Assembly (NCBI GenBank): GCA_000998135.1
Contig: LCCV01000004.1
Coordinates: forward strand, 21,681-85,680
Length of the DNA stretch: 64,000 nucleotides
DNA from: Parcubacteria group bacterium GW2011_GWA2_42_14
Lineage (GTDB): Bacteria; Patescibacteriota; Minisyncoccia; Sungbacterales; GWA2-42-14
Reading direction: 5' to 3'
The notes under the pieces are model-generated. The model saw nothing but the letters and a program-made list of their open reading frames with translations, did not search any database and was not told the DNA's origin. The position numbers and the translations under genes were made by a program. Numbering within the stretch: position 1 is the first letter of the stretch; each line of letters starts with the position of its first letter. Positions 570-34,165 of this stretch are shown here, piece by piece.

Positions 570-1541
570 TTATTCCTTTTTGGATTTGCGCGTTACCGAA
601 TGTCCATCTCCCAAACGGCGTTTGGAATCATTTGCCGACGGCAAGGCGTGAACGGTGCGAAGCGCTGTATAAACACTCTTAACCTGTTCCGGCTTCTGCC
701 GATCTTCAAGTTCCTTTTTGAAGTATTTAACCCTTCCGGCTTCTTTGGCCATAATGCCAAAAATCACATCAACCACACGTTCCGGATCGCCCAGAAGAGC
801 AATGTGGTCTTCGCCGACCAAGTCAGCCCAATCTTCATGAACTCTCTTAGTGGTTCCTGTCAGCGGGCCATCGCTAAGATGATCATCGCCGTATGGTTTC
901 TGAACAAAGTAAACGGAATAATGCTGTTTTAGTTCTTCAAAAACTTGGTCTGTCTTGATTTTTTGTTTGGTATTAATATGTGCCAATGTTTCGGCTTGGT
1001 TAGGGTCTACATAATTATACGGAGATTCGTCGCCGATAAAAATTAAAAGCGGTCTTATGGCATTAGGCATATTCACGTTTCTCGCGTAATAAAGAGCGGC
1101 AAGTTCATAACTTTCCTGGGTTGTTCCTCCGCCCTGACCCTCAATGACAAGCTCCTTTAGTCTTACGGCAAGATCAGTGCCCTTGGCAAATGGGCGAACC
1201 TGCAGCGGATAATCCTCGCCATTATGCGCGTCTCCGATAGCGCCCCAACTAATTTCTACGTCCTTTCCCATATATTCTGTCTTGGCTTCATGTTCCAGAT
1301 ACGGAAGTTTAGAAAACATAGTTGCCGGCCACTCTCCCATTGAACCTGTTTGGTCGGTAATAATTACCAAAGGATTGGTGCTTTCGGTAGAAAGTTTTTT
1401 GGGAACAAGATCTTTTGCCTTAACACCCTTGCTTACCGCCTTGCTGTAACTGCCTGCCGCATAACTCCGATAACTCCGGCGGGCACTGTCAAAATCATGA
1501 CCCGACCATACACCCGGACTATAATCGCCTGCTTCAGACAT
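570..1541 (-). CDS. von Willebrand factor A (vWA) domain protein, TerY-like
   Basis: 323-aa ORF. MIDAS-like motif LVIITDQTGSMGE (DxTGS). Divergent from the adjacent kinase/PP2C pair. Confidence 0.7.
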   Translation of the reverse strand: MSEAGDYSPGVWSGHDFDSARRSYRSYAAGSYSKAVSKGVKAKDLVPKKLSTESTNPLVIITDQTGSMGEWPATMFSKLPYLEHEAKTEYMGKDVEISWGAIGDAHNGEDYPLQVRPFAKGTDLAVRLKELVIEGQGGGTTQESYELAALYYARNVNMPNAIRPLLIFIGDESPYNYVDPNQAETLAHINTKQKIKTDQVFEELKQHYSVYFVQKPYGDDHLSDGPLTGTTKRVHEDWADLVGEDHIALLGDPERVVDVIFGIMAKEAGRVKYFKKELEDRQKPEQVKSVYTALRTVHALPSANDSKRRLGDGHSVTRKSKKE

Positions 1542-4238: not shown

Positions 4239-4454
4239 AATTGAATTGGTACTGATTGAAACTTGTTTCTTGCTTCGTTCGAAACGAAACTCATAGAAAC
4301 TAAATCTTCCGTCATTCTTCTCCCCCTAATACTTAGGAAGTAGGAATTAAAGAGGGTGGAGTTAATTTCGCGAGTCCCGAGCACGCCGAGGGATGAGCAA
4401 GTTTCTATTAATTTTTATGAATATTTTGAATGCCGAAAAACAGAGTTGGAAATC

Positions 4455-21332: not shown

Positions 21333-21437
21333 GACCTTTTGCAAAATAAGGTTTATTCCCAAAATTTTATTCCCTGAGCCTGTCGAAGGGTAAAATTTTG
21401 GCTTAAAATCAAGGTATGTCTTCGACAAGCTCAGACA
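21333..21437. repeat. MITE-like repeat, family F4 (GACCTTTTGCAAAATAAGG ... CCTGAGCCTGTCGAAGGGTAA ... GGTATGTCTTCGACAAGCTCAG)
   Basis: Inverted repeats CTGAGCCTGTCGAAGG / CTTCGACAAGCTCAG. Other copies at 31021-31163 and 56984-57050, and a fragment at 58199-58222. Confidence 0.65.
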
Positions 21438-31020: not shown

Positions 31021-31163
31021 GACCTTTTGCAAAATAAGGATTATAGCCGAAATTTTTATGGTGAGCCCGTCGAACCATTATTCCCTGAGTATGTCGAAGG
31101 GTAATAGTTCAATAAACTCACTATAAAAATTTTGGCTTAAAATCAAGGTATGTCTTCGACAAG
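31021..31163. repeat. MITE-like repeat, family F4 (copy 2)
   Basis: Starts at the base after the mgtE stop and ends just before the partial tRNA copy. Confidence 0.65.
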
Positions 31164-31180
31164 CCCCGTTGAAATGTGGT

Positions 31181-31220
31181 GCGAGAATAGTTTAGTGGCA
31201 GAACGACTGCTTCCCAATCC
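31181..31220 (+). other. partial duplicate of the tRNA-Gly 5' half (about 40 nt, no T-arm)
   Basis: GCGAGAATAGTTTAGTGGCAGAACGACTGCTTCCCAATCC, compared with GCGAGATTGGTTTAGTGGTAAAACGAGTGCTTCCCAAGCA in the intact gene 56 nt downstream. Confidence 0.6.
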
Positions 31221-31236
31221 CCGTTAGAAATAGAAT

Positions 31237-31307
31237 GCGAGATTGGTTTAGTGGTAAAACGAGTGCTTCCCAAGCATTAGACAGGAGTTCGATTCTCCTA
31301 TCTCGCA
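31237..31307 (+). tRNA. tRNA-Gly (anticodon CCC)
   Basis: Manual fold: acceptor GCGAGAT/ATCTCGC with G1-C72, C2-G71, G3-C70; anticodon loop TTCCCAA; T-arm AGGAG-TTCGATT-CTCCT. No encoded CCA. Confidence 0.7.
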
Positions 31308-31480
31308 CAATAGTGGACTTTTCGCGCTTCGGCACATCAATCGCCGTTTCTATTTCAGAAAATCTGCGGGTTCTAACATCGTCTAATTGCCCGTATAGAG
31401 AAATGGAACTTTTTATTGCTGATTATTAAAATCTTCTGAGAAAGAAATGGTTTTTGAGTGGTCGGGTGAGGTTCTAACCA
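31308..31480. repeat. module X, copy 1, of a modular repeat of about 180 nt
   Basis: Shares GTGGAC...TTCAGAAA(T)CTCGCGGGTTCTAAC...TATAGAGAAA...TTCTGAGAAAGAAATGGTTTTTGAGTGGTCGGGTGAGGTTCTAAC with 32185-32368 and 33135-33450. Confidence 0.6.
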
Positions 31481-31623
31481 AAAACCTACTAGCTATTGAC
31501 TTATTTTTAGTTTTGTAATAGTCTTGATAATAGAAGTTTCAACCTACCCGAACCCCTCAAGCCGAGTGTTCGGCTTCAAAGGTAAATTTCGGCAAAAACA
31601 AACAGAGAAGGAGGGACCGAAAG

Positions 31624-32082
31624 ATGTTCGGAGTAATCATCGCGGTTTTGATCGGACTGTTTCAGTACATTTTTGTCACGAAGACGCCGGAGGCAATCTG
31701 GCTGACTTCCACGGGCTTTCTGTTTTGGTGGTACATAGTGTGGTCGTCAATCCTTGCCATCATCGTTTTCCTTGTGATGTTGGGTATCACTGGTGCCACG
31801 ACATTCGCGGCTGGATCCACTGGATACGGTGCTGGTAGCAAGTTGTTGCGGGGTATTGGTGGTTTTGTTGGAGGCGGAGCTCTTTCATTGCTGGTCGGTG
31901 TTTTGTTCTTCATTTCCGCTGGCCTAAAAATCGGAGGCATATACTTGCTTTCAACTGCAGTTGTACTTACCGAGCAGGGCTATGTGTGGAATACTACGAC
32001 TTTGATTTTCGGCACCCTTGCTTTGGTCGTTGGACTCATTATGAGCAAATCTTCAGGTTCTTCATCCTCGTCAAAATCCTAG
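31624..32082 (+). CDS. small Gly-rich integral membrane protein with a Ser-rich tail
   Basis: 152 aa with four hydrophobic segments and a ...SSGSSSSSKS C-terminus. Confidence 0.45.
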   Translation: MFGVIIAVLIGLFQYIFVTKTPEAIWLTSTGFLFWWYIVWSSILAIIVFLVMLGITGATTFAAGSTGYGAGSKLLRGIGGFVGGGALSLLVGVLFFISAGLKIGGIYLLSTAVVLTEQGYVWNTTTLIFGTLALVVGLIMSKSSGSSSSSKS

Positions 32083-32103
32083 ACTGGCGAGGCAAACGAG
32101 TTT

Positions 32104-32135
32104 GGCTGGTTGAGCGTATCAACCAGCCGTTTTTT
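32104..32135. terminator. intrinsic terminator
   Basis: GGCTGGTTGAGCGTATCAACCAGCC hairpin followed by TTTTTT. Confidence 0.6.
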
Positions 32136-32184
32136 ATGTAAAATCAGTTCGAGAGAGGTTCTAACATCGTCTATAAAAGTGCAC

Positions 32185-32368
32185 ACTAGTGGACCTTTAG
32201 CGTTCTTGCCGCGCGAAAAGTATTTAGACTTCAGAAATCTCGGAGGTTCTAACGCCGTCTCGTTGCTTGTATAGGGAAAGAGAAAAATTTTTAATTGTCA
32301 AAACCAATTCTTCTGAGAAAGAAATGGTTTTTGAGTGGTCGGGTGAGGTTCTAACTAAAAACCACGAG
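32185..32368. repeat. module X, copy 2
   Basis: See 31308-31480. Confidence 0.6.
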
Positions 32369-32447
32369 ACCTTGTATTTTTTAAGGGAATGATATAATAT
32401 TCTCTACAGAATAGAACACAACAGATACACATTAGGAGGTTTAGACG

Positions 32448-32819
32448 ATGGGAAAGATGGCTTTGCTCGCTGTTTTATTGAGTGTTTTCGTTTTGACCGC
32501 TTGCGACAATGCGCCGCGTTTACCACAAGGAACGCTTGTGAAAGAAGACAACGCAGAAATCCAGGCGCAGTTTGACCGACTTAGCAAAGATGAAACCGCT
32601 ACCGTCACAATCGGAGACGAACATGTAATGTTGATGGTTTTAAAAGATTTCATGAGTACGGACAACATCCGTGGTGTTGGTGGCGGTGATCCATGCAAAG
32701 CATACCGACTTACTGCGAAGGATGGGACAAAAGAAGTTGGGGTTGTCTGCAAAAGTATGCCGTTCGGCAAGAAGTGGGAACATCGCCCGTGGCGCGAATG
32801 GTTTCATTCACTTAGATAA
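32448..32819 (+). CDS. putative lipoprotein
   Basis: MGKMALLAVLLSVFVLTAC lipobox. 123 aa. Confidence 0.45.
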   Translation: MGKMALLAVLLSVFVLTACDNAPRLPQGTLVKEDNAEIQAQFDRLSKDETATVTIGDEHVMLMVLKDFMSTDNIRGVGGGDPCKAYRLTAKDGTKEVGVVCKSMPFGKKWEHRPWREWFHSLR

Positions 32820-33134
32820 TCGTCTAACAGCACAAGCGCCCTTGAGGACACAACCCCAGGGGCATTTTCTTTCAAAATCGAGGTTCTAACGTCGTCTATA
32901 AAAGTGCACCAAAATCTGATTTTCGGAAAATTGACCGACTTTTTCGTTGGCGGCGCAAAGCGCCGCCACCGAAATGGTCTGGAAATTTGCAATTCGTCAG
33001 ATTTTGGTGTGTCTTTACGGTTTGGCTCGAACTCATTTTATCCGAAATTCCTAAAAACTGACTGGAGGCCGCGCTTCGCGCGGAGAATCAGGAATTTTTG
33101 ATAAAATAGTTTCGAGCCGTACTGTAAAGATACA

Positions 33135-33450
33135 CAATAGTGGACTTTTAGCGCTTCGGCGCATCAATTGCCGTTTCTATTTCAGAAATCTCGCGGGTTC
33201 TCCTCCTTCGCTCTACGAGCTTCGGCGGACGCAGTAACACTTGCCTTGCCGTAGCTTCAGCGAAGGCAGGTCGTCTCGCTGCCCGCTTGCCCTGCCGTAG
33301 CTTTACGCGACTGCGTGCCACCTTAGCTTTAGCGGTGGAGCAAGGCGGGTATAGAGAAGTAGAACTTTTTATTGCTAAAAACTAAAATTTTCTGAAAAAG
33401 AAATGGTTTCTCAATGGTTTTGCAGAGGTTCTAACAAAAAAGCGGCTTGA
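33135..33450. repeat. module X, copy 3, with a GC-rich hairpin-rich insertion of about 150 nt (33201-33347)
   Basis: The module is split at CGCGGGTTCT | ... | GGGTATAGAGAAG. The insert contains repeated CC..GCCGTAGCTTYA..G hairpins. Confidence 0.55.
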
Positions 33451-33486
33451 TGTTATCGCGCCGCTATGGATAGTGGAATAGTGGTT

Positions 33487-34017
33487 TTAAGAATCTTCTT
33501 CGTCATACTCGATTTGTTGTTTTAAGATGCTCTCTTGAATATTGTTTGGTTTATCAACAGTCCAGTACTTCCAATGCGGCTTAATCCACCATGAATGAAA
33601 TTTAATGTTAACCCTGCCTTCAAAAAATATCTCCATCAGATGATCATCCAATACGATTCTTAAGAACGATCTTTCGGGCTCCGGAAGGGCGGGATCATAC
33701 GGATCAATTCCACGATTTAATATAACCATTTTTCCAACACCATCTTCCGTTGGCTCAATTCTCTCATATGCCAGAGAAAACCCCTTTTGATAATCATTCA
33801 AAAGAAAGTGAAACACCTCGCTTGAATCAATAAATAGATGCAGACCCGATTTGTTTTTTTTAAAAGTAAGCGTTCGGCCTTCTAATTTTTTATTGACCTT
33901 TACCGTACCGCCCATTGAGCCGACTAATCTAATATACAGCAAATCTACGGGATACTTGTCCAGACACAGCTTTAAATTTTTAAAATCTAACTTTTTTGGC
34001 ATCCAATATTGTTCCAT
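33487..34017 (-). CDS. hypothetical protein
   Basis: 176-aa ORF inside the repeat island. Confidence 0.4.
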   Translation of the reverse strand: MEQYWMPKKLDFKNLKLCLDKYPVDLLYIRLVGSMGGTVKVNKKLEGRTLTFKKNKSGLHLFIDSSEVFHFLLNDYQKGFSLAYERIEPTEDGVGKMVILNRGIDPYDPALPEPERSFLRIVLDDHLMEIFFEGRVNIKFHSWWIKPHWKYWTVDKPNNIQESILKQQIEYDEEDS

Positions 34018-34165
34018 CCGAAAACCCTCTAATTTTATATTTTGTAAAGTAACTTATCTGATATTACTTTAACGATATTAGACATTTTTGCAAATGAAAC
34101 AGGTTCTAACGTCGTCTATAAAAGTGCATAAAAAATTAAAACGGCCGTTAAAGCCGTTTTTAAAA

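Follow-up and report, generated by a model that had tools for sequence, protein, structure and literature searches.

The subject of this analysis is a repeat-structured region beside a tRNA-Gly(CCC) gene in a 64,000-nucleotide (nt) stretch of DNA, hereafter the window, from Parcubacteria group bacterium GW2011_GWA2_42_14 (contig LCCV01000004.1). The repeat-structured features are confined to 31.3-34.1 kb of the window and are built from two sequences, a module here called M (~175 nt, longer in its third copy through insertions) and a 27-nt direct repeat here called R28. We tentatively favour, with a confidence slightly short of even, the reading that the region is a tandem array of integrase-less single-gene cassettes, in which R28 joined to M (R28|M) forms an attP-like junction carrying three phased, putative protein-binding boxes. 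This reading is favoured because the grammar of the region, which opens with a tRNA, closes with a lone R28 and has R28|M at its internal boundaries, fits repeated site-specific insertion at one anchor. Neither a pure small-RNA gene family nor a leader sequence predicts this grammar, which is the best discriminator between the readings considered here. The layout of the window is tRNA-Gly|M1-gene 1-R28a|M2-gene 2-R28b|M3-gene 3 (reverse)-R28c|flank, with the following features (aa, amino acids):

31237-31308, plus strand: tRNA-Gly(CCC), the anchor of the array (ARAGORN; Rfam tRNA, 69.6 bits).
31306-31478, plus strand: M1, type A module (covariance-model score 197.9 bits).
31624-32082, plus strand: cargo gene 1, a 152-aa Gly-rich multi-pass membrane protein, with TTGACT-N17-TAGTCT upstream and a terminator at 32103-32129.
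32157-32183, plus strand: R28a, contiguous with M2.
32182-32355, plus strand: M2, type B module (covariance-model score 164.4 bits).
32448-32819, plus strand: cargo gene 2, a 123-aa predicted lipoprotein (signal peptide ending ...LTAC), with an extended -10 sequence, TGATATAAT, upstream and a terminator hairpin at 32838-32863.
32882-32908, plus strand: R28b, parted from M3 by two palindromic insertions only.
32907-33009 and ~33010-33135, no strand: these two palindromes, which resemble miniature inverted-repeat transposable elements (MITEs) and were recognised as inverted repeats by self-complementary matches.
33133-33435, plus strand: M3, type A module (covariance-model score 146.7 bits; fold z -4.5).
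33487-34017, minus strand: cargo gene 3, a 176-aa beta-rich protein transcribed towards M3, with a terminator at 33441-33465.
34102-34128, plus strand: R28c, the solitary repeat at the end of the array; a bidirectional terminator (34138-34160) and a flanking 103-aa gene come next.

The initial annotation of this DNA had described three module copies of ~180 nt, three 28-nt direct repeats and small genes that each have their own terminator. The modules were found at a length of ~175 nt, the repeats as exact 27-nt copies, and a terminator was found for genes 1, 2 and 3. The R28 sequence, GGTTCTAACRTCGTCTATAAAAGTGCA, has exactly three exact copies in the window (32157, 32882 and 34102), and shuffled sequences give 0. 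M2 is 75% identical to M1 overall, with the final 45 nt identical. The boxes of M1 are GGTTCTAACATCGTCTA (internal, 31369) and GAGGTTCTAAC (terminal, 31468-31478); in M3, three GC-rich hairpin insertions that total ~147 nt (33202-33348) interrupt the internal box region and leave the pieces GGTTCT / AACA / TCGTCT / TGCCC.

The window sequence is part of contig MHQY01000033.1 from a Candidatus Sungbacteria metagenome-assembled genome (MAG; GCA_001820775.1), and the 3.1-kb region is identical base for base across independent NCBI, JGI and ENA assemblies. Other contigs of the same strain (L003-L009) break inside M1, inside R28a, or between R28b and M3. The presence of the same sequence in several independent assemblies, together with several contigs that end inside the repeats, indicates that the region is real and not an assembly artefact. 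As the repeats systematically break short-read assemblies, such arrays are likely to be under-represented in MAGs.

The same frame was looked for by an exact-pattern scan of one genome per species, a metagenome scan and protein look-ups. The first scan gave one true match (L013) and the metagenome scan four true contigs (L023, L068, L016 and L054), and the protein look-ups led to L088 and L097/L098. Five arrays with unrelated cargo (the window, L023, L016, L097 and L088, the other arrays being from other Parcubacteria) are each opened by a tRNA 3' end and closed by a lone R28, and within them the order is tRNA, M, one unrelated gene in either orientation, and the next R28. The anchors are tRNA-Gly(CCC), tRNA-Gly(TCC) and tRNA-Leu. 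In L016 the first module lies just after tRNA-Leu; in the window, L023, L088 and L097 it is directly adjacent to the tRNA 3' end. The arrays and the related partial loci are arranged as follows:

L023 (of which L068 is a duplicate in reverse complement): tRNA-Gly(CCC)|Mb, a reverse 127-aa gene, R28|Ma, a nucleoside deoxyribosyltransferase gene, R28.
L016: tRNA-Leu, a GIY-YIG gene, M, a secreted 160-aa protein, R28.
L097/L098: tRNA-Gly(TCC), a GIY-YIG gene, a diverged module (56 bits), a 63-aa membrane gene, an R28 variant.
L088: tRNA-Gly(CCC), the first 52 nt of M, a short insertion, a box plus TAAAAGTGCA.
L013 (Candidatus Giovannonibacteria): an R28-like box directly before a full module, at the end of a contig and downstream of tRNA-Val and two small membrane genes.
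L054: a cut module, then an insertion sequence (IS).

The closing R28 of L023 is followed by ~20 nt that resemble a module start. L088 is syntenic with the window (gatB-mgtE, MgtE 54% identical), and its structure suggests that the segment from the internal box to the next R28 was deleted. By comparison, L087, whose MgtE is 86% identical to that of the window, has neither tRNA nor module after mgtE, and L089 has a tRNA-Gly without a module and a downstream gene that is not homologous to the window's flank. Subtypes A and B are both present in the window and in L023. A covariance-model search for more diverged module copies over 85 loci matched only the copies listed here. The initial annotation had likened the region to an integrated element or a cassette array at a tRNA, and much of that view holds: the array is anchored at the tRNA, no integrase is seen, the module recurs in relatives in the same frame at four other tRNA loci with unrelated cargo, and there are relatives with mgtE but without the frame. 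Its description of the genes as promoter-less does not hold, as discussed with the cargo below.

M and R28 are better conserved between genomes than the adjacent tRNA: R28 of the window and of L023 agree at 27/27 positions and the adjacent tRNA-Gly genes at 55/72, and M1 is 85% identical both to Ma of L023 and to the L013 copy. Conservation beyond that of the tRNA and MgtE argues for selection or mobility and against neutral repeats. This bears on the alternative, which we consider unlikely, that a tRNA-linked R28+M unit has been amplified as passive DNA by unequal crossing-over, and that its copies serve as homology patches for the gain, loss or exchange of genes after DNA uptake. Passive amplification would need no recombinase, and none was found. 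The identity of the last 45 nt of M1 and M2, where the rest is ~75% identical, suggests gene conversion, the structure of L088 fits a deletion between 17-nt direct repeats, and in E. coli repeats of comparable size are linked to tRNA genes without a known function (PMC8144298). It is, however, hard to reconcile with the retention of sequence and box spacing across genomes whose tRNA and MgtE are far more diverged, and with the same strict order at three different tRNA species.

The boxes themselves are sharply localised. The 9-mer GGTTCTAAC has 8 copies in 64 kb (0.25 expected), all on the plus strand and all within 31369-34110. A full unit contains three boxes, one at the opening of R28 (GGTTCTAACRTCGTCTA...), one inside M (the same 17 nt) and one closing M (GAGGTTCTAAC), and the spacing of the GGTTCTAAC boxes is exactly 88 and 102 bp in three genomes. 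When the junctions are tabulated, every M begins right after ...GCA|C. At M1, the tRNA-Gly 3' end (...TCGCA|CAATAG) directly adjoins the module and takes the place of R28 (...TCGCA|CAATAGTGGAC versus ...GTGCA|CACTAGTGGAC).

From this arrangement we infer that cassettes have recombined at these junctions. A cassette would start with M and end with R28, and the cargo between them, oriented either way, would be a unit complete with its own promoter, gene and terminator. R28|M would then represent the joined, attP-like form of a site-specific recombination site, with tRNA|M as the left junction and the lone R28 as the right junction, and repeated insertions at the one anchor would push older cassettes outwards. 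The three GGTTCTAAC boxes, 88 + 102 bp apart, would be the likely binding sites of a recombinase supplied in trans.

The start of M right after ...GCA|C, and the single orientation of all its copies, would also be expected if M alone were a small non-autonomous mobile element, of the IS200/IS605 palindrome-associated transposable element (PATE) style or otherwise strand-specific, which inserts 3' of a short GCAC-type target, present at tRNA ends as well as at the end of R28, and for which the lone R28 is an unoccupied target. The conserved subterminal hairpin of M, along with the lack of terminal inverted repeats at the DNA level, would suit such an element. Nevertheless, none of the loci showed a TnpA or TnpB-like gene, copies occur only at these arrays in all the sequence searched, and the 17-nt box common to M and R28 is not explained by a simple target, which leaves this reading quite improbable. 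M was also considered as a MITE and rejected, since its ends pair only through G·U and carry no inverted repeat at the DNA level.

Several observations weigh seriously against the cassette reading. Neither the open reading frames (ORFs) of the 64-kb window nor the surroundings of the other arrays inspected yielded a recombinase, integrase or transposase domain, in agreement with the initial annotation, which had seen no integrase. There is no classical extended att core, as R28 is not significantly similar to tRNA 3' ends: their alignment is no better than shuffles (124-904/2000 reach its score), with nothing in common beyond GCAC and a T-loop-like GGTTC.A. At the R28|M junction, the dyad (8/10) is unremarkable. 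The array is the same in all contigs from near-identical strains, and thus no insertion or excision polymorphism is seen. Homologues of genes 1 and 3 occur without the frame too. Finally, the predicted plus-strand-specific fold of M, with its G·U pairs and compensatory changes, would be no less compatible with a function as RNA than with a DNA site.

Other assignments of the repeats were tried and set aside. The reading of R28 as a decayed tRNA 3' end was dropped, given that the similarity is not significant, and the unremarkable result of the dyad test speaks against a dif-like site. As an integron attC site, TTCTAAC resembles RYYYAAC, but the complementary GTTAGAA is absent and all 8 copies of GGTTCTAAC lie on the plus strand. 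A CRISPR array does not fit either, as distances of 725 and 1220 nt separate the R28 copies, and genes and conserved modules lie in the "spacers". A phage or plasmid origin was likewise rejected, as no viral contig has the R28 or module pattern and phage and plasmid collections gave no blastn match. M is not a coding sequence, since its ATG-led reading frame is shifted in M3 and meets a stop after 4 codons in L013.

The folding of M brings in the possibility that the module works as RNA. In an Rfam scan of the window, only the tRNA reaches the gathering score, and the modules are unmatched even at E<=10. The RNAalifold consensus of the M plus strand is a rod rich in G·U pairs, in which a stem P1 pairs GGACUUU with GAGGUUC, three G·U pairs included, and further elements are a small 5' hairpin and the pairings UCAA/UUGA, CCGUUUCU/AGAAAUGG and UUUCAGAA/UUCUGAGA. 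Compared with shuffles, the plus strand of type A copies reaches z values from -1.8 to -4.7, whereas the minus strand and type B do no better than shuffles; for M1, z is -2.7 on the plus strand and -0.4 on the minus strand. The insertions in M3 fall in the apical region, and its basal stems are still predicted to form. Among nine copies, 89% of cells are paired versus ~50% in slid controls, and three pairs show double changes, with the observed values reached by 24-37/500 shuffles, the covariation score by 24 of them. The 5' hairpin shows compensatory changes, with GCGC-UUCG-GCGC versus GACG-CCUU-CGUU in Ma of L023. On these predictions a folded plus strand of M is plausible, M may act as a folded strand or be transcribed, and it is possible that it encodes a small RNA.

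A more specific proposal can be built on these data, namely that M is a structured small-RNA gene of ~150-175 nt with two subtypes, that the tRNA-adjacent copy would be freed by 3' processing of the tRNA and the others transcribed from a promoter in R28, and that the arrays arose by duplication, with the cargo as later insertions or regulatory partners. Apart from the strand-specific rod, the excess of paired cells, the hairpin changes and the intact basal stems of M3, this proposal draws support from R28 itself. Its TATAAA, taken as a -10 element, puts the start at the CAC that opens M, the tRNA 3' end and TATAAA-N6 would give almost the same RNA 5' end, and the R28 copies of L023 have TTGAAA or TTGAGA 17 nt upstream of TATAAA. 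The proposal gives no reason, however, for a lone R28 closing every array or for a single unrelated gene of either orientation between copies, and it would place the best-conserved part of R28, GGTTCTAAC, in the promoter spacer; this sequence also recurs twice inside M. The covariation is weak, as seen in the three pairs and the shuffles that reach their values, type B copies lack a fold that exceeds shuffles, no terminator follows M, and Rfam offers no match. A small-RNA gene family, the leading alternative to the cassette reading, thus strikes us as possible but doubtful. The small-RNA and cassette readings are not mutually exclusive.

The cargo genes are unrelated to each other, and genes 1-3 have no convincing match in Pfam, NCBIfam, PHROGs or PADLOC. 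Gene 1 has homologues of 89-94% identity (P0241-P0244) and a further one in L097 (76% identity), the latter with the same promoter and terminator and no module or R28 beside it; homology between the gene 1 cassette and L097 starts 14 nt after the terminal box and stops ~8 nt before the next GAGGTTCTAAC. Contrary to what had been annotated, the cassettes do not lack promoters, since promoter-like sequences belong to the cargo units themselves: gene 2 has TGATATAAT, and the TTGACT region upstream of gene 1 is conserved in its homologue elsewhere.

These results bear on a cis-acting role for M, as a leader or portable promoter of the next gene, which had been suggested from the window at the outset. 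The next gene is co-oriented after M1, M2, Ma of L023 and the modules of L016 and L097. Yet 3/9 copies are followed by a convergent gene (M3 and Mb of L023) or by an IS (L054), the promoter-like sequences of the cargo lie downstream of M, and that of gene 1 is conserved where M is absent. The unrelatedness of the cargo genes also indicates that the modules are not the 5' untranslated regions of a paralogous family. A leader or portable promoter is, on these grounds, highly improbable, and that suggestion is not borne out.

Gene 3, which had been called an orphan, has at least 336 homologues, at 65-84% identity. Family members come from bins of the Candidate Phyla Radiation (CPR), namely Paceibacterota, Niyogibacteria and Brennerbacteria, and from bins labelled DPANN archaea, mostly on short contigs. 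Elsewhere, relatives of gene 3 are convergent and lie right after a tRNA 3' fragment or an R28-like box (L090 6001-6531; L091 6001-6525; L093 5001-5474). Gene 3 was considered as the missing recombinase and rejected, as it has no match in Pfam, NCBIfam, PHROGs, PADLOC, PDB sequences or viral folds. The NCBI record also annotates a 65-aa ORF at 32904-33101, which lies wholly inside the two palindromic insertions and is probably not a gene.

Comparison with known systems places the region between several of them. Integrative elements and their integrase-less derivatives (cis-mobilizable elements, CIMEs) stack at tRNA genes (PMC5704250), as do tycheposon islands in Prochlorococcus (bioRxiv 10.1101/2020.12.28.424599). 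The window shares with this kind of accretion the anchor at a tRNA 3' end, the putative outward displacement of older units, the persistence of integrase-less units between junction repeats and the patchy occurrence among relatives. CIME and tycheposon elements are, however, several kb or larger, are parted by true partial tRNA copies and have an integrase or its remnant in or near the array, whereas the units of the window are 0.7-1.2 kb, hold a single gene, have a junction repeat that is no recognisable tRNA fragment, and lack an integrase remnant. A conserved, putatively structured 175-nt module at each junction also sets the window apart from them.

A second likeness is to the tRNA-linked repeats (TLRs) of E. 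coli, such as the 178-bp tyrT repeats, which are ~180 bp long, directly follow a tRNA gene as one to five copies and may be co-transcribed with it; they are defined by 18-19 bp identical to the upstream tRNA 3' end (PMC8144298). Position after the tRNA and size are similar here. R28 lacks the 18-19-bp identity to a tRNA end, and TLRs are contiguous, with no genes between the copies.

Integrons, and clusters of attC sites lacking integron-integrases (CALIN), form head-to-tail arrays of single-gene units of less than 1 kb, bounded by structured, partly palindromic non-coding sites, and the integrase may be absent nearby. The small single-gene units, the putatively structured sites that bound them and the stacking without a nearby integrase are shared by the window. 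In contrast to integron and CALIN arrays, there is no RYYYAAC/GTTRRRY inverse-core pair, as the boxes lie on one strand, and the site of ~200 nt is conserved in sequence, whereas attC sites are conserved mainly in structure. The cassettes of the window also carry their own promoters and can be inverted (gene 3), and their anchor is a tRNA rather than attI. The pdif modules of Acinetobacter plasmids are small cargo units bounded by 28-bp sites and presumably move by means of a host recombinase encoded elsewhere. They resemble the window in having small cargo units between repeated short sites; pdif sites, however, are 11-6-11 dyads in alternating orientation, while R28 has no significant dyad and all its copies are direct, and pdif modules have no 175-nt module.

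By analogy, tandem accretion at tRNA genes and integron/CALIN arrays would be the closest working likenesses, though the region was found to belong to neither, as it lacks attC cores, tRNA-derived att repeats and an integrase. The frame at five tRNA sites points to a mode of cassette stacking that has not been described before and involves no local integrase. A stronger form of this idea, which we regard as decidedly unlikely, is that M/R28 is a new recombination system of the CPR, integron-like without an integron integrase, with its enzyme encoded elsewhere, in which single-gene cassettes would enter at tRNA 3' ends and M would act as a folded, attC-like strand or as a transcribed RNA of the guide or bridge kind, with GGUUCUAAC segments that match the DNA boxes. 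Under that integron-like reading, the small GIY-YIG nuclease encoded at the tRNA|module junction would be a candidate enzyme.

CPR bacteria (Patescibacteria) have tiny genomes, and their gain of accessory genes is poorly understood. If the cassette reading is true, the region would represent a compact gene-capture platform that stacks single surface-protein genes at tRNA sites in several Parcubacteria lineages, and GGTTCTAAC boxes 88 + 102 bp apart, plus R28, would provide a sequence signature for finding flexible loci. If M is a functional RNA, it would define a new RNA family that, unusually, is produced in two ways.

Upstream of the array, between mgtE and the modules, the initial annotation had placed a MITE, a copy of the tRNA 5' half and the tRNA-Gly(CCC) itself, and all are present where it placed them. 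The two features outside the array are:

31164-31217, plus strand: a dead tandem duplicate that consists of the 17-nt tRNA leader and the tRNA-Gly 5' half up to the anticodon loop (78% identity with 31220-31273).
31045-31137, no strand: a palindromic MITE-like element between mgtE and the tRNA, an inverted repeat outside the module/repeat frame.

The partial tRNA duplication thus exists, and spans 54 nt with its leader. Because no sequence lies between the two copies, it is a tandem duplication, neither an element boundary nor the kind of att remnant that classically flanks an element. Over its 37-nt tRNA part it agrees with the tRNA-Gly of L088 (11177-11248) at 35/37 positions and with the live copy of the window at 32/37. 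The half-copy is therefore nearer to the functional tRNA-Gly of L088 than to the live copy 2 nt downstream, which indicates that the diverged parts are the D-arm and anticodon stem of the live gene. TAGAAA/TAGAAT, resembling -10 hexamers, lies at 31222-31236, immediately 5' of the mature tRNA-Gly, and its position suggests that the tRNA may be transcribed with little or no leader. A copy related to the MITE-like element at 31045-31137 lies at 21333-21416.

Further small elements accompany the tRNA and module junctions. In two independent arrays, one beside tRNA-Leu and the other beside tRNA-Gly(TCC), a small GIY-YIG nuclease gene (~85-90 aa) is inserted at the exact point where tRNA and module meet (L016 ~1017-1270, minus strand; L097 3984-4256; L098 1987-2259), and the insertion in L097 is flanked by a duplicated tRNA 3' end (CCTGCCCGCACA) plus ~20 nt. 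The same insert of ~24 nt (CTCTTCGAYT..CTCAGAGTAAA) is found inside the TTTCA|GAAA of the module in two genomes (L016 ~975-1000, minus strand; L088 11301-11324). Related hairpin elements of the form ...CCCTGAGT..GTCGAAGGGT... occur at 31065-31110 of the window, in the L097 module (~4380-4415) and beside tRNA-Leu in L016. The IS that follows the cut module of L054 (~700-1925) has the terminal inverted repeats GCTCATAATT..GTTACCGTA and encodes a 390-aa protein without a Pfam match.

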